From: Escherichia coli
Lineage (GTDB): Bacteria > Pseudomonadota > Gammaproteobacteria > Enterobacterales > Enterobacteriaceae
Length of the DNA stretch: 64,000 nt
Assembly: GCF_003018255.1 (NCBI RefSeq)
Contig: NZ_CP027440.1
Strand: one strand, 5' to 3'
The notes below the pieces were generated by a model, which saw only the letters and a program-made list of their open reading frames with translations, did no database searches and was not told the DNA's origin. A program made the position numbers and the translations under genes. This document shows positions 25,088 through 35,272 of the stretch, one piece after another (positions within the stretch are counted from its first letter, which is position 1; the number at the start of each line of letters is the position of its first letter).

Positions 25088-25579
25088 ATGGGTAAAAAAA
25101 CAGCACCGTTACTCCCTTATACGAATCAGATGCTTAGTGAATTTGGTGAGCGGCTGAAACTTGCTCGTTTACGACGCAGGCTTACCGCAAAGCAAGTTGC
25201 TGAACGTGCTGGGATGTCGCCAATAACATTGCGCTCTCTGGAGTCAGGAAGTGCAGGGGTCACGATAGGGGCATATTTGTCTGTGATGCAGGTTTTGGGC
25301 CTGGAAACGGATTTAAATAAGCTTGCAGCTGAAGACGACTTAGGGCGTCAGCTCCAGGATTCCCGTTTGATTAAAAAAAGAGGGCTTTCTCGTGCATCAA
25401 GTAAGAATGAAGAAGGTTCTCAGACAGCCTCATTGCAGATGAGGCACGAGAAAGAAGGTCATCTCACCACGGATTTAACAGCACTGGCAGAAGGCTCGAC
25501 GCCATCTATTACAGGAGAAACATCAACCTCTCTTGCAGCACTATTAAAACCGATAAAAAAACCGTTAAAAGGAAATTAA
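25088..25579 (+). CDS. XRE-family HTH protein, HipB-like putative antitoxin with long C-terminal extension
   Basis: 163 aa; HTH_XRE signature around [32 protein letters not shown]; Ser/Thr/Glu-rich low-complexity C-terminal ~75 aa; stop 25577-25579 is 2 bp before the kinase ATG. Confidence 0.75.
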
Positions 25580-25581
25580 TT

Positions 25582-26850
25582 ATGGCATTAATCGGAGTGT
25601 ATGCGGATTGGGAAGGCCTGGATGGTCCGGAGCGGATTGGTTATTTACACAGTCGCCGCACTCGGACGCGTGAGATATTTGAGTTTGAGTACGATAAAAA
25701 GGCGCTTGCAGATCCTTCACTTAATTTCATTCAGTTAGATCCTGAAATAATGTTGTATGAGGGAGCACACTACCCAATTCCTCCAAAGGATAAATTTGGT
25801 GCATTTAGTGATTCCTGCCCGGATCGTTGGGGGCGTATGCTAATGAAGCGTCGTTTTGAGAGGGATATTCGAGACGGGTTATGTGATAAAGACTCCCACC
25901 TTTATGAGTCTGATTATCTACTAGGTGTTCATGATCTTTATCGGGTTGGGGCCCTTCGATACAAACGTGAAGACGCTGGAGAGTTTCTTGATAATCGCAT
26001 TGATGTTGCAGCCCCACCATTTACCGAAATAGCGAGTCTGGAAAGGGCTAGCCGGGCAATTGAAGAAGATCCTGATAATAAAGAGCTAATGGGGCAAAAA
26101 TGGTTAAGAATGCTAATCGCTCCGGGGGGATCATTAGGGGGGGCACGTCCGAAAGCCAGTGTTGTTGATGAAGCTGGGCATCTCTACATCGCTAAATTTC
26201 CCAGTGTAAAAGATGAGTATGATGTTGGTGGATGGGAAATGGCCGTTAATGCACTTGCTGTTGGCTGTGGACTGAATGTTGCACCTGCTCAGGCGCATAA
26301 ATTTGCCAGCAATTACCATTGTTTTATGGTTCGTCGTTTTGACCGCACTAATGCGGGAAGGCGTCTGCATTTTGCTTCGGCTATGACACTAACCAGGCAT
26401 CAGGATGGTGAAGATGCCTCTACAGGTGTGAGTTATCTGGAATTAGCAGATGTTCTTATCAGGCATGGCGCGCAGACTAATACTGATCTTAAGGAACTCT
26501 GGTCCAGGATTGTTTTTAATATTCTTGTTTCTAATACCGATGATCATTTACGCAATCATGGATTTATCTTGATACCAGGAAAAGGTTGGCGGCTTTCTGA
26601 GGCATATGATTTGAATCCTGTGGTCAGGTCTGATGGTTTAAAACTCAATATTACGGAAAATGACAATGCACTTGATTTGGAATTAGCTAGAGAAGTTGCA
26701 GAGTATTTTCGACTTAGTTTGACGGAAGCTGATGACATTATTGCTAATTTTAGAGGGATTGTCAGTCAGTGGCGAATCATTGCCGAGCGTCTGAGATTAC
26801 CTGGTCGTGAGCAAGAGTTAATGGCAGAGGCATTCAGAGCGTCAATTTAG
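25582..26850 (+). CDS. HipA-family serine/threonine kinase (putative type II toxin)
   Basis: 422 aa; Gly-rich loop GGSLGGARPKAS, catalytic-loop motif NTDDHLRNHG and HipA_C-like C-terminus (DLNPVV...); aaggaa RBS upstream of ATG. Confidence 0.8.
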   Translation: MALIGVYADWEGLDGPERIGYLHSRRTRTREIFEFEYDKKALADPSLNFIQLDPEIMLYEGAHYPIPPKDKFGAFSDSCPDRWGRMLMKRRFERDIRDGLCDKDSHLYESDYLLGVHDLYRVGALRYKREDAGEFLDNRIDVAAPPFTEIASLERASRAIEEDPDNKELMGQKWLRMLIAPGGSLGGARPKASVVDEAGHLYIAKFPSVKDEYDVGGWEMAVNALAVGCGLNVAPAQAHKFASNYHCFMVRRFDRTNAGRRLHFASAMTLTRHQDGEDASTGVSYLELADVLIRHGAQTNTDLKELWSRIVFNILVSNTDDHLRNHGFILIPGKGWRLSEAYDLNPVVRSDGLKLNITENDNALDLELAREVAEYFRLSLTEADDIIANFRGIVSQWRIIAERLRLPGREQELMAEAFRASI

Positions 26851-26947
26851 AATAGTTATTTCGATATATTCGCTAAATCATAAATTTGCGAAGCAATGCC
26901 AGTAGATACTGAACGTTTTGGAAGAGACGTTTAATTTATGAGAAAAA

Positions 26948-26982
26948 TAGAAACGCTACAAAGCTAAATTATAGCGTTTCTA
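26948..26982. terminator. Bidirectional hairpin between the HipA-like gene and the convergent MFS gene
   Basis: tagaaacgct ... agcgtttcta inverted repeat (10-bp stem, ~15-nt loop) in an AT-rich context. Confidence 0.5.
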
Positions 26983-26992
26983 TGTAAAATAA

Positions 26993-28270
26993 TTAGCTTG
27001 TCGCTAACTGTACTTGTGGTTCTTCGTCTTTAACTTTGATAAGCATCCACAGCGCAATGGCGCCAATAATGTCAAAGAAAGCCAGGGCAATAAAGAACGG
27101 CGCGAAGCCAATAATGTGAACGAATGCCCCGATAAACAGGTTGAAAATCAACTGACCGCTCCATGCACAGGCTCCTGCCATACCCACAGCGGTAGCTACT
27201 TCGTCTTTTTTGAATAGGTCACCGCCCAGAGTTGCTGCAACAGTAGAAAGACATTGATGCGAGAATGCGCCAATGCTAATCAGTAATACGGCGATGTAGG
27301 GATTTTCGACAATACTCACCAGACCAATCGTCATCATAATGACGGCTGCAATAGTGAAGGTAATTCTTCGTGAGTTAATTAAACTCACGCCGCGATCGTG
27401 GAAGAACTTCGCGACAAAACCACTGGCTAAACAGCCGAGATCGCCCAGCAGGAAAGGTAGCCAGACGAACATGGCAATTTCTTTCAGGCTAAAATGCAGC
27501 GTTTCGACGAAGAAAATCGGTACCCAGAAGTTAATGGTTCCCCATGCCGGGTCAGCGAGAAAACGCGCGATGCCAATCCCCCAGAAATTACGTTGGCTGA
27601 GGATATGCTTGATTGACGTTTTTTCTTTCTTATCTGTTTTAAGATGCTGTTCTTGCCCAGACTCAATATAGTGGCGCTCTTCATCAGAAAGGCGTTTAGC
27701 ATCTTTTGGATCTTTATAACAAAAGAACCAAAATAAAGCCGCGAGTAAAGCAAGGCTACCTGAGACAATAAACGCAAATTGCCAGCTATGAAACATAATG
27801 CACCAGGCAATCAACGGTGGAGCAAGCATCGCGCCGAGTGAGGTGCCCATATTGAAAACACCTGTCGCCACGCCACGCTCTTTTGCCGGGAACCATGTTG
27901 ATGCGGTTTTTACACCCGCAGGAATTGCCGATGCTTCGCTGAAACCCATCAGGGCGCGCATAAATGCCAGACCTGACCATGTTCCTGTCAAGGCATGCCC
28001 CATTGTCGCCAGGCCCCAGATTGCGGCACATATCGCAAAACTTAACTTCAGACCCACGGTATCAATAAAGAAGCCCATTATCGGTTGCCCCAATGTATAG
28101 GCCAACTGGAATGCACTGACAATCCATGAATATTGTTCTTTGGTTATTCCGGTTGTCTCCATAATCGTTGGAGCCGCAATACCTAACGCCGTTCTGTCCA
28201 GATAATTGATTACAGTGATAAAGCATACGAGGGCAATCATATGCCATCGATAATTCTTTATTTTATTCAT
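26993..28270 (-). CDS. MFS transporter, anion:cation symporter family (ExuT/hexuronate-transporter-like)
   Basis: 425 aa, 12-TM-like hydrophobicity; MNKIKNYRWHMIALVCF...WFPAKERG...KEIAMFVWLP resembles ExuT/DgoT-type sugar-acid transporters as recalled from memory. Confidence 0.8.
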   Translation of the reverse strand: MNKIKNYRWHMIALVCFITVINYLDRTALGIAAPTIMETTGITKEQYSWIVSAFQLAYTLGQPIMGFFIDTVGLKLSFAICAAIWGLATMGHALTGTWSGLAFMRALMGFSEASAIPAGVKTASTWFPAKERGVATGVFNMGTSLGAMLAPPLIAWCIMFHSWQFAFIVSGSLALLAALFWFFCYKDPKDAKRLSDEERHYIESGQEQHLKTDKKEKTSIKHILSQRNFWGIGIARFLADPAWGTINFWVPIFFVETLHFSLKEIAMFVWLPFLLGDLGCLASGFVAKFFHDRGVSLINSRRITFTIAAVIMMTIGLVSIVENPYIAVLLISIGAFSHQCLSTVAATLGGDLFKKDEVATAVGMAGACAWSGQLIFNLFIGAFVHIIGFAPFFIALAFFDIIGAIALWMLIKVKDEEPQVQLATS

Positions 28271-28362: not shown

Positions 28363-30435
28363 TTATTGTGTGTAAATGTCTCCCTTTAAAAAATCTGGCC
28401 AGTTTTTTTCAAAGTAAATACCGTTAATACACGGTTGCATACGTAAAGACTTTACTTCGGTAATAAAAGAACCTTGCGAATATTGAATTGTTAATTTGTG
28501 ATTTTTGTCTTCAGCGAGTTCAGAGCGAAAACGCCATTCTTCTTTTGCGCCGCGACGAGTTTGTGGTAGGCATTTGCCTTGTGGATCAATAACCATACGC
28601 GCCCCACGGCTACCACCACCAGCATCAATATAATGCGTTAATTGTGTTAATACCGCGGCAGAAGTCAGCGCCATATGCCGCCACATAAACAGCTCGGCAA
28701 CTTCACCCACATGTTTGATTGCCAATCCATGCCGTTGGACAAATTCGTTCAATAGCAGGGCATCACGAGTGGCACGTCGGACTTTATCGGCATGGCAAAT
28801 AAATCCCGCATAGTCAGACATTCGTGCCTGAATTTTTTCTCTCACAACCGACAACGGCATCCCGGTCCCGTTATCGTGCGCCTGAGTAATGATCTCTCTT
28901 ATAGAAGCCAGTGCCGGAGCTACCAGCTGTGCTATATCTCCATCAATATTACGTTTTTGCGTGCAACCAATAAAACGTGCCAGACGAACAGCAAAAACCT
29001 GCCCGGCATTCAATGCCGCACCACCAGGGCGAGTGACGCCGTGTGTGCCAGCAACTTCCCCCACGGCGAAACAGCCGGGCAGGGAGGTTTGTCCCCAGAT
29101 ATCCACTTCAATGCCGCCATTCATATGCTGATTATTCATGGCAAACTGCAAAGGCTGTGTGGTGAGATCGTAACCGTGCATCTTATACAGCGAGATAGAC
29201 AGCGGATTCATTCGTTGCAGCCGTTCGATGGGCGATGGTGCCAGAGCGTCGTTATTTTCCAGATACGCGCGAACGTCGTCGTCCAGTCGATCTAATGAGA
29301 AGGGCAGGTCACCCGGCACCGCTTCAGGATTGCGATTGAAATCCATAAATACCTGACGCCCTGATTGCTGCTCTTGCGCTACAGCCATATCTAACAAGCT
29401 GGAGCCAAACTCCATTACCCGAGTGGCGTGGAACGGCCACTGATAGCCTTTACGAAAAATGTTTGAAGCCAGCTCCTGGGTGGTGCGATAGTAATCCGCG
29501 AGGAAGTTATACTCGTTGCCCCCGGCATCCACGGAATAGATATGTGGGATCACCTGCACATAGGTGCCGGACAAATTCCACGGAAACGTGCTGCGCGGTG
29601 TGCCTATACCAAACTGGCTTTCAGTCAAATTGGTTAGCGTCAGACCTTCTTCCAGCGCCAGCCCCAGCGAGCCGAAACATTTGTGTGGGTACACACTGTC
29701 GCGATAAAGCTCGCCAGGCCCTCCTGTTGCCAGTACCACATTGGGCGCAATCACAATTGCCAGCCCCCATGGGTTATGGACGCGATGACCGGTCGCGAGG
29801 ATAGCCCCCGCCACGCGGTCTTCGCCGTTTTCGTCACGCTGATGCAGCAGTTTAATCACTGTTGCACTGGTCAACATTGGGATAGCAAGACGCTGTACTT
29901 CTTCCAGCAGCACTTTCACCATTAACCTTGAGGTACGTGGCCCACACGAGGTTGCACGCCCGGCTTCGTCATGGTCGGTTTGATAACGAAGAATCGCACC
30001 ATAGCGATCTTCCGGTAATTCCAGACCAAGATATTGCAACCCGCCAAGAGTGTGCAGAGAACCTACCGCTTCGACATAAGCAGTGTCGTGATCCATCGCC
30101 CCACCACTCGCCAGTGCCTCTGCCAGTTTGGTGAAGTTGTCGCCGTTGCCCGCGGTAGCGGCGGTAAACAGCGTCTGTTTATCGGAACCGGAGCAGGCCG
30201 ATGTTCCCATGTATAACCCGGCGGTGGCGATTAACACATTTTGCTGGCGGCGTTTAAGTTCCACAGCTGCACGCAGCCCGGCTGCACCACTGCCGACTAC
30301 CAGGGCATCTGTTTGCCAAAGTGGGTAATCAACACCGTCTACCGTGACAACCCATGCGGGTTCTGCCTGTGCAAAACCCTTTGGGAAAGTAACGTGCGTC
30401 AGCGCATCAAGGATGGTGTCATCAAGCTGACTCAT
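28363..30435 (-). CDS. FAD-dependent oxidoreductase (succinate dehydrogenase/fumarate reductase flavoprotein-like superfamily)
   Basis: 690 aa; N-terminal Rossmann dinucleotide motif VVGSGAAGLRAAVEL; start ATG overlaps the stop of the upstream CoA-transferase gene (ATGA). Confidence 0.7.
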   Translation of the reverse strand: MSQLDDTILDALTHVTFPKGFAQAEPAWVVTVDGVDYPLWQTDALVVGSGAAGLRAAVELKRRQQNVLIATAGLYMGTSACSGSDKQTLFTAATAGNGDNFTKLAEALASGGAMDHDTAYVEAVGSLHTLGGLQYLGLELPEDRYGAILRYQTDHDEAGRATSCGPRTSRLMVKVLLEEVQRLAIPMLTSATVIKLLHQRDENGEDRVAGAILATGHRVHNPWGLAIVIAPNVVLATGGPGELYRDSVYPHKCFGSLGLALEEGLTLTNLTESQFGIGTPRSTFPWNLSGTYVQVIPHIYSVDAGGNEYNFLADYYRTTQELASNIFRKGYQWPFHATRVMEFGSSLLDMAVAQEQQSGRQVFMDFNRNPEAVPGDLPFSLDRLDDDVRAYLENNDALAPSPIERLQRMNPLSISLYKMHGYDLTTQPLQFAMNNQHMNGGIEVDIWGQTSLPGCFAVGEVAGTHGVTRPGGAALNAGQVFAVRLARFIGCTQKRNIDGDIAQLVAPALASIREIITQAHDNGTGMPLSVVREKIQARMSDYAGFICHADKVRRATRDALLLNEFVQRHGLAIKHVGEVAELFMWRHMALTSAAVLTQLTHYIDAGGGSRGARMVIDPQGKCLPQTRRGAKEEWRFRSELAEDKNHKLTIQYSQGSFITEVKSLRMQPCINGIYFEKNWPDFLKGDIYTQ

Positions 30436-31973
30436 GCATCCTCCATCGGCGTAAACAGGCTACTTTCCATCAGGCGTGGGTGCTTGATAATTGGACGGAA
30501 AGCCATATACGGCAGAATGTCGCGCTCAATCTCCACACCCGGCGCGATTTCAATTAATTCAACGCCTTCTGCCGTTAACTGGAATACTGCGCGTTCAGTG
30601 ATATACAGCACTTCCTGACCACTTTGCTGTGCGTAGGCGGCGCTAAAAGTGATTTTTTCCACTTGGGTAACCAGTTTAGGGATTTGACCTGACTGGGCGA
30701 TATGCAGGCCATCAGGCGTTACATCAATCTTGCTGCCTTTGGCGTCAAACGTACCGCAGAACACCACTTTACGGGCGTTTTGCGCAATTTCGAGGAAGCC
30801 GCCGGGGCCAATGAGATTGCCATTGAGATGGGATACGTTGACGTTACCGTACCGATCCATCTCTCCCATGCCGAGGAAGGTGATATCGATACCGCCGCCA
30901 CTGTAGAATTCGAATTGATCGAGTGATGGAATAATGGCGTCGGCGTTACGGGCGCAGCCGAACAGAGCATCATCCAGCATCATGCCGTTATGTACGCCTT
31001 GCTCGACGCTCATCCATAAACTTTGATAAGGCACGCCTTCGCGCAGCGCAACCCCAGGAATACCGCCCGGAATACCAAAGCCAAAGTTGGTTGAAGCGCC
31101 TGCCACCAGTTCCCGTGCTGCCCGACGGGCAATCAGGCGACGCACCGGATGACTAACCAGTTCAATAGCGTCGTTAGAACTTAGACGGCGATGTTGACCG
31201 CTGATCGTCAGGTCGTAACCGCCAAGATAGGTTTGCGGTTGTTCGCGGTGTTCAACGATACCATCGACCAGAATCCCCGGTAGCTTGACCTTGCGAGGTT
31301 CAATGGCGCCAGCTTCCAGTACATCGCGCACCTGTACAAACACTTTGCCGCCACTGTTGTGTGCTGCCAGCGCCATCGAATAGCTATCCATATCAATCGC
31401 TTCTTCTTCGAGGCTAACGTTGCCACGCGGATCGGCATAGGTGCCGCGCAAAATCGCGTAGTCCACTTTGAAAGGGCGATAGCGGAGTTTGGTTTCACCG
31501 TCGATTTCAATCAGTTCTACCAGGTCGTCGGTCGTGCATTCATTCGACTTACCGCCACCATTGCGTGGATCAACAAACGATCCCAGCCCAACGTGGGTAA
31601 AAAGCCCCGGACGTCCGGCACCGATCTCCCGCAGCAGTGCCTGAATTACGCCACCAGGGAAACAGTAGGCTTCAATAGCATTGCTTTTCACCAGTTCCTG
31701 CATCTTGGGCGACCAGGTAAAATGTCCGGCAATAATGCGTTTGAGCATTTCGGCGTGAGCAAAACGGTTAGTGCCTTTGCTGTCGCGATCGCCAATACCC
31801 AGCGAGTGGATTAATGTCAGATCGCGCGGGTGTCCGGTTTGCAGGAAACGCGCTTCAATGGCGGCCATAATATGGTCAGCTTCCACCATACCGCCGCCGT
31901 TACCGCTAATGGCAATGGTTGCGCCGTCCTGAATTTGCGCCGCCAGTGTCTCGGCGGTTGATAACTTACGCAT
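30432..31973 (-). CDS. Family I CoA-transferase, fused alpha/beta subunits (YdiF-like acyl-CoA:acetate CoA-transferase)
   Basis: 513 aa; GSFVDPRNGGGK and YITERAVFQLTAEGVELIEIAPGVEIERDIL closely parallel YdiF motifs as recalled from memory. Confidence 0.75.
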   Translation of the reverse strand: MRKLSTAETLAAQIQDGATIAISGNGGGMVEADHIMAAIEARFLQTGHPRDLTLIHSLGIGDRDSKGTNRFAHAEMLKRIIAGHFTWSPKMQELVKSNAIEAYCFPGGVIQALLREIGAGRPGLFTHVGLGSFVDPRNGGGKSNECTTDDLVELIEIDGETKLRYRPFKVDYAILRGTYADPRGNVSLEEEAIDMDSYSMALAAHNSGGKVFVQVRDVLEAGAIEPRKVKLPGILVDGIVEHREQPQTYLGGYDLTISGQHRRLSSNDAIELVSHPVRRLIARRAARELVAGASTNFGFGIPGGIPGVALREGVPYQSLWMSVEQGVHNGMMLDDALFGCARNADAIIPSLDQFEFYSGGGIDITFLGMGEMDRYGNVNVSHLNGNLIGPGGFLEIAQNARKVVFCGTFDAKGSKIDVTPDGLHIAQSGQIPKLVTQVEKITFSAAYAQQSGQEVLYITERAVFQLTAEGVELIEIAPGVEIERDILPYMAFRPIIKHPRLMESSLFTPMEDA

Positions 31974-33620: not shown

Positions 33621-34412
33621 TCAGAAGCGCGGCATACTTAAGCCGCCGTCGATGGCGACCGCCTGACCACAGGTGTAAATCAGTTTACCTTCCGCCATCG
33701 CGCGGACAGTGGAAGCAATATCAGCCGGATAACCCCAACGTCCCCACGGCACCAGACCTTTGGCAATCAGTTCGTCGTAATAGGCCGTTGCCGGAATAGT
33801 CATATCGGTTTTGATGAGACCAGGACGCACTTCATATACGCCAATTTGTTCATTACAAAGGCGAGCAGCAAATAGACGAGCAGCGGCAGAGACGGCAGTT
33901 TTGGCAATGGTATATTCGCCGCGATTCATCGCCAGCATGATGGCGTTGATGGAACTGACGAAAATAATCGAGCGGTGCGGCAGTTCTGCTTCCGGTTTCG
34001 GCTGTGCCAGTAAGCGCTTACTGAATGCCTGAGCGAGGAAGAACGGTGCGCGGGTGTTAATGGCAATATTTTGGTCGAAGCTGTCTGGTTCGAGGTCGAG
34101 AAGATCACCGCGTTTTTTCACTGAAATGCCTGCGTTGTTGAGCAGGCAGTCCAGACGTCCCCACTGGTTTTGCGCTGCGTCGAGCATCTCTTCATGCAGG
34201 GAGAGATCGCCCACATCAGCAGGGAAGCAAATCACTTCCACGCCTTCCGCCAGACATTCTTGTTGTGTGGCATGTAATTTTTCTACGCTATCCGCATCCG
34301 GACGATCATTAATCAGCAGATTAAATCCGCCACGCGCAAGCTCCAGCGCACAGCCCTTTCCAATACCACGAGCGGCTCCGGTAATCACGGCAACAGGAAG
34401 AGTGGATTTCAT
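33621..34412 (-). CDS. Short-chain dehydrogenase/reductase (SDR)
   Basis: 263 aa; cofactor motif TGAARGIGKG and catalytic YxxxK (YTIAKTAV); first gene of the minus-strand operon. Confidence 0.8.
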   Translation of the reverse strand: MKSTLPVAVITGAARGIGKGCALELARGGFNLLINDRPDADSVEKLHATQQECLAEGVEVICFPADVGDLSLHEEMLDAAQNQWGRLDCLLNNAGISVKKRGDLLDLEPDSFDQNIAINTRAPFFLAQAFSKRLLAQPKPEAELPHRSIIFVSSINAIMLAMNRGEYTIAKTAVSAAARLFAARLCNEQIGVYEVRPGLIKTDMTIPATAYYDELIAKGLVPWGRWGYPADIASTVRAMAEGKLIYTCGQAVAIDGGLSMPRF

Positions 34413-34480: not shown

Positions 34481-34502
34481 ATCAACCATCTAGTTGGTTG
34501 AT
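34481..34502. promoter_or_regulatory. Near-perfect 22-bp palindrome in the divergent SDR/TetR intergenic region (candidate TetR operator)
   Basis: ATCAACCATCTAGTTGGTTGAT, 20 of 22 positions self-complementary, 8-bp perfect arms. Confidence 0.4.
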
Positions 34503-34624
34503 ATGCGATGGCGATCACAGGACATTTGATAACCTGATGAAAGTACAAGTTTTTGCCCTTTTTTCTGAAGCTGAAATCAAATCAGGTTATGATAGTCACC
34601 ACGAAGAGGTCGTGGGGAAGCGTT

Positions 34625-35272
34625 ATGTATCTTGATACCAGCAACGTACAGAGCCTGAAAGAAAAGCTGCTGTTATGCGCGGTTAATGAATTTGCCGAAT
34701 ATGGTTACGAAGGGGCCAGAGTCGATAATATCGTCAAGGCCGCGGGGTGCAGTAAACAGACGGTTTATCACCACTTTGGTAATAAAGAAAATTTATTTAT
34801 CGAAGTACTGGAATATACCTGGAACGATATTCGACAAAAAGAAAAGGCCCTTGATTTCTCAGATCTTCCGCCACAGAAAGCCATTGAGAAAATAATCGAT
34901 TTTACATGGGATTATTATATTTCTAATCCCTGGTTTTTAAAAATTGTGCATAGTGAAAATCAAAGTAAGGGTGTGCATTATGCAAAGTCACAGCGTCTTT
35001 TAGAAATTAACCATGCGCACTTGCAGTTAATGGAATCCTTATTGGATGAAGGGAAGAAAAACAATATTTTTAAGCCAGATATCGACCCATTGCAGGTGAA
35101 TATTAATATTGCTGCGCTTGGGGGATATTATTTGATCAACCAGCATACGCTTGGTCTGGTTTATCACATCAGTATGGTTTCACCCCAGGCACTGGAAGCC
35201 AGACGTAAGGTCATCAAAGAGACAATCCTTAGCTGGCTTTTGGTTGACCCTTCATCTACCGCGCGCGAATAA
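34625..35272 (+). CDS. TetR/AcrR-family transcriptional regulator
   Basis: ORF track 34553..35272 begins at a TTG; ATG at 34625 with ggggaag RBS is more plausible (215 aa); TetR_N HTH ([27 protein letters not shown]). Confidence 0.75.

Follow-up and report, generated by a model that had tools for sequence, protein, structure and literature searches.

What does a large flavin adenine dinucleotide (FAD) flavoprotein do when its gene directly follows that of a CoA-transferase in an Escherichia coli operon, and to which class of enzymes does it belong? The gene lies on the minus strand of contig NZ_CP027440.1 (RefSeq assembly GCF_003018255.1), in a stretch of 64,000 nucleotides that is the window analysed here. 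An initial annotation of this DNA described the product as an FAD flavoprotein longer than typical FrdA/SdhA/KstD-type enzymes, co-expressed with the CoA-transferase and possibly acting as an electron sink. Its sequence places the protein in a separate clade, with no characterised member, of the complex II flavoprotein/L-aspartate oxidase superfamily, and it is predicted to be neither a fumarate reductase, nor a succinate dehydrogenase, nor an aspartate oxidase. The reading that we favour, and to which we give an even chance of being correct as a whole, is a carboxyl-anchored Cα–Cβ dehydrogenase (a reductase being less likely) of a polar sugar-derived acid, encoded in a TetR-controlled organic-acid operon.

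Fold and superfamily

The sole Pfam domain of the flavoprotein is FAD_binding_2 (PF00890), which spans residues 43-475 (E = 2.2e-25) and the complete model (positions 1-414 of 414). It is preceded by an N-terminal extension (residues 1-42), encloses a family-specific capping domain (about 277-400), and is followed by a helical domain (about 490-605) and a C-terminal beta-rich element of about 80 residues (about 610-690), which is marked by a conserved RPIPxxxxWFExVW motif. The dinucleotide-binding motif GSGAAG (residues 48-53, within VVGSGAAG at 46-53) has the GxGxxG form, and its G48 and G50 do not vary among 61 homologues. From an alignment of these homologues, AlphaFold gave a model with a pLDDT of 93.7 and a pTM of 0.94, and its nearest folds in the PDB according to Foldseek are L-aspartate oxidase, SdhA, and FrdA. 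The flavoprotein is thus a member of the NadB/complex II class, including the C-terminal helical domain, with extra elements at both ends.

The protein is longer than E. coli FrdA and SdhA because of these extra N- and C-terminal elements and its different capping domain. Solved relatives have 540 (NadB), 588 (SdhA), 602 (FrdA), and 643-656 (AprA and Wolinella FrdA) amino acids, so that the unusual size remarked on earlier is correct but modest, and 600-700 amino acids is the norm in its own clade. The family alignment has no conserved cysteine cluster, and neither a signal peptide nor a twin-arginine motif is seen by eye in the N-terminal sequence MSQLDDTILDALTHVTFPKGFAQAEPAW; the flavoprotein is predicted to be cytoplasmic and to stand alone. 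The N-terminal Rossmann motif of the initial annotation is therefore present, placed after a 42-residue extension, and the domain analysis that it proposed returned FAD_binding_2, an additional C-terminal element, and no signal peptide.

Active site

The family profile was searched against solved structures, and residues were counted per column in an alignment of 61 sequences (A1), which share 32-53% identity with the query and have 48 invariant columns. At the first substrate-binding position, 'QFHPTG' of SdhA is aligned with 'QF---G' of the family, the His-Pro-Thr being deleted and G276 invariant. In SdhA and FrdA, the His and Thr of QFHPT bind the C1 carboxylate. At the second position, NadB 'AAHYTCGG' is matched by 'CAQHxNGG', in which an invariant Gln (Q436) takes the place of the canonical His and is followed by H437, likewise invariant. 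R469, also without variation, lies within GxHGxxRPGG opposite NadB GLHGANR and corresponds to the Arg that binds the carboxylate in NadB. The His that binds FAD covalently in SdhA (H45) is aligned with C81, a position held by Asn in 49 and by Cys in 6 of the 61 relatives, and the FAD is therefore most likely bound non-covalently.

The capping domain could not be aligned with that of SdhA, NadB, or any other known member in the profile search. The region has invariant residues of its own, mostly polar or aromatic: S289, G290, K329, W333, S345, S346, D349, R405, and N410; besides the invariant K329 and R405, R360 is nearly invariant, and the alignment with SdhA and NadB assigns no residue to the position of the capping-domain proton-shuttle Arg (FrdA R287/SdhA R286). 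These columns suggest that the flavin site is kept together with half of the substrate site, a carboxylate clamp formed by R469 with Q436 and H437. The other half, which in related enzymes holds the second carboxylate of fumarate or aspartate by means of the His-Pro-Thr and the proton-shuttle residues of the capping domain, would be replaced by the family-specific capping domain. Among FAD_binding_2 enzymes, other substrate specificities have arisen by keeping the carboxylate motif and altering the second-carboxylate motif (10.1101/2022.01.20.477176).

These features bear directly on the idea that the protein is a conventional paralogue of fumarate reductase, succinate dehydrogenase, or L-aspartate oxidase. 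Some source records do label the protein 'succinate dehydrogenase flavoprotein subunit', and its best NCBIfam matches are TfrA (the top match), NadB, and SdhA/FrdA. Nevertheless, these models match at 40-125 bits, and the best score of 125 bits compares with curated cut-offs of 450-1100 bits, which places the scores 4- to 10-fold under every cut-off: 80 versus 567 bits for TIGR01812, 45 versus 727 for TIGR01816, 43 versus 854 for PRK09231, and 99 versus 453 for the L-aspartate oxidase model TIGR00551, whose H244 position is deleted and whose H351 corresponds to the invariant Q436. The His and Thr of QFHPT are missing, Gln stands in place of the second His, a His for covalent FAD is lacking, and genes for an SdhB/FrdB-like Fe-S subunit or a membrane anchor are found neither in the operon nor in its counterparts in E. 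coli 536, Klebsiella, and Salmonella. An ordinary paralogue is thus extremely improbable. Of the earlier assignment to the FrdA/SdhA type, the superfamily membership holds, by Pfam, Foldseek, and NCBIfam alike, and the active site does not fit. The protein is also no closer to KstD than to other FAD_binding_2 classes.

Size and hosts of the clade

A HMMER search of 1.84 billion representative proteins returned 412 clusters (50% identity) with E < 1e-30, mostly of 600-700 amino acids and 35-55% identical to the query, and at least 596 loci match two family motifs in a scan of one genome per species. The query carries the complete clade signature (SxxxGSDKQT, YKTDHD, QFG, NLSGTYQQ, KGYQWPF, GSSLxD, PIxRLxxMNP, QHxNGG, RPGG, and GGSRG), together with the length of 600-700 amino acids; the relatives that define it are 35-58% identical. 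Those in AlphaFold DB are all named 'FAD-binding protein' or similar. The clade occurs in Enterobacteriaceae, Rhizobiaceae, Rhodobacteraceae, Planctomycetota, Verrucomicrobiota, Lentisphaerota, Aminicenantes, Clostridia (Enterocloster bolteae), Halanaerobium, and Treponema, and thus in strict aerobes and strict anaerobes alike. No publication on the operon or on the flavoprotein family was found in the literature searched, and the GapMind paper does not mention them.

The operon

The flavoprotein gene is the fifth gene of an operon in which a short-chain dehydrogenase/reductase (SDR), a triosephosphate isomerase (TIM)-barrel protein, a crotonase, a CoA-transferase, the flavoprotein, and a transporter of the major facilitator superfamily (MFS) are encoded in this order, with a divergent TetR-family regulator gene in front (Table 1). 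The genes from SDR to MFS are separated by 9, 9, and 9 nucleotides, a 4-nucleotide overlap, and 92 nucleotides. E. coli members of the anion:cation symporter group, to which the MFS protein belongs, transport sugar acids. Compared with rat enoyl-CoA hydratase, the crotonase has both Glu positions of the hydratases, in its motif GGGIELALCCD...FSNPEV. Neither the flavoprotein nor the operon has an Fe-S, cytochrome, electron-transferring flavoprotein (ETF), old yellow enzyme (OYE), FMN_bind, or NAD(P)H module recognisable by Pfam or NCBIfam.

Table 1. Position of the flavoprotein gene, its motifs and the other features of the operon in the window
Feature	Position	Strand	Basis or remark
Probable operon terminator, hairpin with 15-bp stem and T-run	26947..26983	minus	10 nt after the MFS stop
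MFS transporter, anion:cation symporter group, 425 amino acids, last operon gene	26993..28270	minus	D-galactonate transporter subfamily, 314 bits
FAD flavoprotein, single open reading frame, 690 amino acids, ATG start	28363..30435	minus	listing of open reading frames
Invariant R469	29029..29031	minus	equivalent of carboxylate-binding Arg NadB R386 / SdhA R399 / FrdA R390
Invariant Q436-H437	29125..29130	minus	Q436 opposite NadB substrate His H351; H437 is the next residue
Q274-F275-G276, QFHPT position with His-Pro-Thr deleted	29608..29616	minus	profile alignment to SdhA 1NEK
GSGAAG dinucleotide-binding motif	30277..30294	minus	
GGAGGA ribosome-binding site (Shine-Dalgarno) of the flavoprotein	30439..30444	minus	4 bases before the ATG, within the final CoA-transferase codons
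Family I CoA-transferase, fused alpha/beta, YdiF-like, 513 amino acids	30432..31973	minus	2AHU YdiF, E = 3e-114
Crotonase-family enoyl-CoA hydratase, 258 amino acids	31983..32759	minus	profile matches
Xylose-isomerase-like TIM-barrel protein (AP_endonuc_2), 280 amino acids	32769..33611	minus	closest solved structures have no assigned function
SDR, 263 amino acids, first operon gene	33621..34412	minus	NCBIfam PRK12745, 417 bits versus cut-off of 250
Probable TetR operator, perfect 8-bp inverted repeat ATCAACCA-N6-TGGTTGAT	34481..34502		between the SDR and TetR starts
TetR/AcrR-family regulator, divergent	34625..35272	plus	ATG equivalent to RefSeq; mechanical open reading frame from TTG at 34553

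The start codon of the flavoprotein overlaps the stop codon of the CoA-transferase in the sequence ATGA (30432-30435, 4 nucleotides), as had been noted, and the gene coordinates, the GGAGGA site, and the identical gene boundaries in the RefSeq annotation of E. coli 536 all agree on this start. Klebsiella oxytoca and Salmonella enterica have this 4-nucleotide overlap as well. The overlap makes translational coupling possible and demonstrates neither a fixed stoichiometry nor a physical complex; the 'stoichiometric co-expression' that the initial annotation read from it does not follow. A protein of 1078 amino acids from E. coli (P0004, 11 member sequences) was considered as a natural fusion of both enzymes and rejected as an internal deletion allele: residues 1-388 of the CoA-transferase are joined in frame with the flavoprotein from residue 5, and the C-terminal quarter of the transferase is removed. 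This allele suggests decay of the operon in some strains.

The inverted repeat between the SDR and TetR genes, probably the TetR operator, recurs unchanged in E. coli 536 and, of the loci compared, in one further locus from E. coli. A CRP-like site, TGCGATGGCGATCACA (34504-34519), with one mismatch to the consensus and about 100 nucleotides upstream of the SDR gene, was not used, two such sites being found in the window where 1.6 are expected.

Gene neighbourhoods of relatives

The genes around the flavoprotein were compared at 84 loci (80 from the scan of species representatives, three short metagenome contigs, and the region of E. coli 536); neighbouring open reading frames were called and clustered, cluster representatives were annotated with NCBIfam and Pfam, and neighbours were counted within 6 kb. 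The metagenome contigs, which hold distant homologues, are short and give little gene context. The commonest neighbour is an SDR (34 loci), often directly adjacent, followed by Gfo/Idh/MocA oxidoreductases (23 loci, some of them levoglucosan-dehydrogenase-like), KdgK-like PfkB kinases (18), glucose-methanol-choline (GMC) oxidoreductases (17), OYE/FadH-like Fe-S flavoproteins (16), Eda-like aldolases (14), and TIM barrels (12). The transporters are of organic-anion types: the anion:cation symporter MFS of the query, a tripartite ATP-independent periplasmic (TRAP) transporter at a locus from Bacillota, and, in Brenneria, an MFS protein that is PcaK-like (369 bits).

A neighbour-joining tree divides the flavoprotein family into two halves. 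Group I includes the query (52-58% identity) and shows two contexts. The first, TetR–SDR–(Gfo)–TIM–MFS–flavoprotein, is found in Brenneria (the sister of the Escherichia clade), Pseudescherichia, Phytobacter, Mangrovibacter, Opitutae, and Lentisphaeria, and the second is a long alphaproteobacterial cluster. In group II (35-41% identity), the flavoprotein lies in SDR–Eda–BNR_4–flavoprotein–kinase clusters and has OYE partners. In Planctomycetota (L063, L052, and related loci), the order is a FadH-like protein (OYE and GltD-like), SDR, Eda-like aldolase, secreted BNR_4 protein, flavoprotein, a kinase like that of 2-keto-3-deoxygluconate (KDG), and an MtnA-like isomerase; such a cluster may encode an uncharacterised acidic-sugar pathway.

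CoA-transferase/crotonase genes lie within ±6 kb of the flavoprotein at only 6 of the 84 loci. The view that the CoA link is peculiar to Escherichia was nevertheless withdrawn, the CoA genes of alphaproteobacteria being located just outside the 10-kb flanks. The fullest example is a 15-gene single-strand cluster on plasmid pRCCGE531c of Rhizobium sp. CCGE531 (L088, 697339-716411), which begins with LacI–Gfo–CoA-transferase–crotonase–aldehyde dehydrogenase and a four-gene ATP-binding cassette (ABC) sugar transporter and continues with GMC–GMC–Gfo (levoglucosan-dehydrogenase-like)–flavoprotein–PfkB kinase (KdgK-like)–class I aldolase (fructose-bisphosphate aldolase-like). Aldehyde dehydrogenase, crotonase, and CoA-transferase genes stand at the edge, where the sequence is cut off, of at least 10 alphaproteobacterial loci. 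In a Clostridia metagenome-assembled genome (MAG; L084), the order is flavoprotein–CoA-transferase–crotonase–cupin–SDR–CoA-transferase, and in a Desulfobacterales MAG (L068) the flavoprotein lies amid CoA-transferase, MaoC, acyl-CoA dehydrogenase, IlvD-like dehydratase, and DapA-like aldolase genes. The CoA-transferase/crotonase pair thus recurs in Enterobacteriaceae, Rhizobiaceae/Rhodobacteraceae, and both MAGs, and the association with a CoA-transferase that had been drawn from the gene overlap extends across lineages. No CoA enzymes are encoded within 10 kb in the operons of the Brenneria/Pseudescherichia type or in the Planctomycetota clusters. Because Brenneria and the next enterobacterial relatives lack them, a CoA ester is not an obligatory substrate of the family. 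The flavoprotein is constantly partnered by the SDR and sugar or organic-acid enzymes, and often by the CoA module, which has been recruited independently.

The adjacency of SDR and flavoprotein (the 34 loci above) is the most conserved feature of the family, and it could be explained by a ketone-directed desaturase similar to KstD or cyclohexanone dehydrogenase, which share the FAD_binding_2 fold. The SDR would oxidise a hydroxyl group on the ring or chain of a cyclic or hydroaromatic acid, like quinate or shikimate, to a ketone, the flavoprotein would introduce the alpha,beta double bond, and the TIM barrel and crotonase would act as dehydratases. The aromatic-acid-type MFS paired with the Brenneria operon agrees with such a substrate, and the enzyme set resembles the bai system for bile acids. 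On the other hand, the carboxylate-binding Arg is invariant, the TIM barrel has no NCBIfam match to dehydroshikimate dehydratase, and the contexts with kinase and aldolase or with ABC and TRAP transporters point to open-chain sugar acids, which together make this explanation improbable.

An indication of an electron partner comes from group II. A metagenomic protein of 1084 amino acids (P0152) is a natural fusion between an OYE-like Oxidored_FMN domain, with a CxxCxxC...C Fe-S motif, and a flavoprotein 41% identical to the query, and stand-alone copies of this OYE-like protein flank the flavoprotein in the 16 loci counted above. The combination of OYE-like and FAD_binding_2 parts is the architecture of NADH:fumarate and NADH:acrylate reductases (10.1101/2022.01.20.477176). 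By analogy with CaiA of the carnitine system and with acrylate and urocanate reductases, the flavoprotein might be a terminal reductase: an imported hydroxy or keto acid would be converted by the SDR, the CoA-transferase, and the crotonase (as dehydratase) into an enoyl-CoA or enoate, whose double bond the flavoprotein would reduce, and the cell would gain an anaerobic electron sink. The enzyme set of the operon fits this reverse direction equally well, and relatives occur in many strict anaerobes. However, the OYE link is found only in the half with 35-41% identity; among the 84 loci, no OYE/Fe-S partner or electron-donor module accompanies group I, and the E. coli protein has neither a donor domain nor a donor gene. 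Moreover, close relatives belong to sugar-oxidising clusters of the aerobic Rhizobium and Rhodobacteraceae that also encode a kinase and an aldolase, a setting of carbon assimilation, and no FNR-type site was seen by eye in the promoter region of the operon. A terminal reductase in E. coli is therefore a possible but rather unlikely explanation.

An electron-sink role had been suggested from the outset, with the caution that an oxidative role was equally possible. The first suggestion draws support from the OYE/Fe-S partner of the distant half and none from the E. coli half, which has no such partner and includes aerobes with sugar-oxidising clusters of GMC and Gfo dehydrogenases; the caution was appropriate. 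The electron sink is one of two live options for the flavoprotein.

Proposed reaction and arguments against it

We infer the substrate type, the site of action, the direction, and the electron acceptor of the flavoprotein from the active site and the gene contexts. In the favoured reading of a Cα–Cβ dehydrogenase, the MFS protein would import an organic anion, and the operon would be under TetR control. The substrate would be a polar monocarboxylic acid derived from a sugar, its carboxyl group perhaps present as a thioester. At the Cα–Cβ bond beside this group, the flavoprotein would catalyse a two-electron step in which a hydride passes between N5 of the flavin and the beta carbon. Activation by the CoA-transferase, desaturation by the flavoprotein, hydration by the crotonase, and oxidation by the FabG-like SDR would then form a sequence similar to beta-oxidation, and a putative TIM-barrel isomerase or dehydratase is encoded alongside; run backwards, the same enzymes would reduce a keto or hydroxy acid. 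A genetic precedent for the breakdown of a sugar acid via acyl-CoA intermediates exists in Klebsiella (PMC6365646).

In the E. coli branch, we consider oxidation somewhat more probable than reduction, because no electron-donor module accompanies group I and because its relatives lie in aerobic sugar-oxidising clusters with kinase and aldolase. Reduction is the better guess for group II because of the OYE fusions. NadB is a stand-alone member of the superfamily that passes its electrons to general acceptors, and by analogy the dehydrogenase might deliver its electrons to a general acceptor such as quinone.

The missing electron partner would also be explained by a redox-neutral flavoenzyme, in which the flavin has a transient or structural role in the isomerisation or (de)hydration of a sugar acid. 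Neither an Fe-S subunit nor a cytochrome, an ETF, or an NAD(P)H module is encoded in the operon, members of the family occur in both strict aerobes and strict anaerobes, and several clusters have no obvious isomerase or dehydratase between the oxidised sugar and the substrate of the kinase or aldolase. We know of no precedent in the NadB/SdhA class, however, and the fusion and adjacency with OYE/Fe-S proteins in many relatives indicate real electron transfer; the ability of a stand-alone NadB to use general acceptors likewise speaks against such an enzyme, which we regard as highly improbable.

Several points weigh against the dehydrogenase itself. The clade has no characterised member in the literature searched, and everything beyond fold and motifs is inference. 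CoA-transferase and crotonase are absent within 10 kb in all hosts of the first group I context (Brenneria, Pseudescherichia, Phytobacter, Mangrovibacter, Opitutae, and Lentisphaeria), and since these sister operons lack CoA enzymes, the beta-oxidation-like sequence cannot hold family-wide; the flavoprotein may instead act on the free acid, upstream of the CoA steps. The operon encodes no thiolase and no electron acceptor or donor, its TIM-barrel protein has no assigned role, and the CRP-like site is not statistically significant. Finally, the OYE/Fe-S linkage or fusion in the distant half, by its likeness to NADH:fumarate and acrylate reductases, would point to reduction.

Individual substrates were also considered, namely unsaturated uronate/DKI, 3-deoxy-aldonate to KDG, glucosaminate, 3-hydroxypropionate/acrylate, tartrate, quinate/shikimate, and an inositol-type lower pathway. 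All are kept as candidates only, since every one agrees with certain neighbourhoods and not with others.

Distribution in Enterobacteriaceae

At least 80% of the segment 26900-35300 of the window, which contains the operon, is matched in 1659 of 5426 complete E. coli genomes (31%), and some part of it in 5415; genomes below the 80% threshold presumably keep the flanks only. The operon is located between rplI/hipBA-like genes and ytfB-fklB-cycA. Adjoining it on the plus strand (25088-26850) are a helix-turn-helix gene (163 amino acids) and, after a gap of 2 nucleotides, an intact HipA-family toxin gene (422 amino acids), which is frameshifted in E. coli 536. In E. coli 536, K. oxytoca, and Salmonella, the rplI/ytfB slot likewise holds this seven-gene set, and its base composition (GC content) is unremarkable, with no sign of recent foreign origin. 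Because slot and gene set are shared with K. oxytoca and Salmonella, the operon is of long standing in enterobacteria, where it has been kept variably, and was not acquired recently. In E. coli K-12, its position is presumably marked by ytfA, a TetR-family pseudogene remnant.

Significance

Taken together, the initial interpretation is partly supported: the family was right at the level of the superfamily, comparative genomics supports the CoA link, and the active site is not of the fumarate-reductase type. Tentatively, and with less than an even chance, we propose that the catalysis of the clade is new to the complex II/NadB superfamily, being a stand-alone (de)saturation of a sugar-derived acid or its CoA ester in a hybrid pathway of sugar oxidoreductases, kinase, and aldolase with CoA-transferase and crotonase. 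If this is true, gut Enterobacteriaceae would possess a new accessory nutrient or electron-sink pathway, present in about one in three E. coli genomes, among them that of the uropathogenic strain 536. As a metabolic trait, the operon varies among E. coli strains, and it also occurs in K. oxytoca and some Salmonella; a gene annotated merely as 'FAD-binding protein' stands for a large, sharply conserved family of hundreds of 50%-identity clusters.

A pocket in which one carboxylate clamp is kept and the rest rebuilt is the way in which this superfamily reaches new specificities, such as urocanate, acrylate, and cinnamate. Identification of the substrate could reveal a new route for sugar acids or polar acids, or a means to balance redox under anaerobic conditions, in the gut or urinary tract. 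Additionally, it would give a function to structural-genomics orphans homologous to the operon partners, the TIM barrel SMc04130 and the SDR PRK12745.

Comparison with known systems

The closest analogues in pathway logic are two systems that act on polar acids as CoA esters. In the cai operon, the flavoprotein is an acyl-CoA dehydrogenase-family enzyme. Both the cai operon and the acyl-CoA pathway for deoxyribonate in Klebsiella (PMC6365646) combine, like the operon described here, a transporter, a CoA-transferase or ligase, a crotonase or hydroxyacyl-CoA dehydrogenase, and a flavoprotein. The deoxyribonate cluster is a different locus with different genes, and neither system has a NadB/SdhA-like protein or a TIM-barrel protein.

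In structure, the flavoprotein resembles NadB (PDB 1KNR/1CHU, 5KXJ), from which it differs by the absence or replacement of His244 and His351, by the additional 42-residue N-terminus, and by the C-terminal element of about 80 residues; moreover, NadB serves NAD synthesis, whereas the query belongs to a catabolic operon. With SdhA, FrdA, and TfrA, it shares the three-domain architecture and an 'ESRGAH'-like motif (GGSRG), at Foldseek TM-scores of 0.65-0.79 and an identity of 15-18%, but it lacks their covalent-FAD His, HPT motif, adjoining Fe-S subunit, and anchor. Fcc3, the NADH:fumarate reductase of K. pneumoniae, the acrylate reductase (ARD) of V. harveyi, and UrdA follow the same principle of a retained carboxylate motif with a changed second-carboxylate motif. 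These enzymes carry an electron-input module, unlike the query protein and its operon, and the distant relatives that are fused or adjacent to an OYE-like module are in this respect similar to soluble enoate reductases. KstD and cyclohexanone dehydrogenase have the FAD_binding_2 fold in common with the query, and they work in tandem with a hydroxysteroid or alcohol dehydrogenase of the SDR type.

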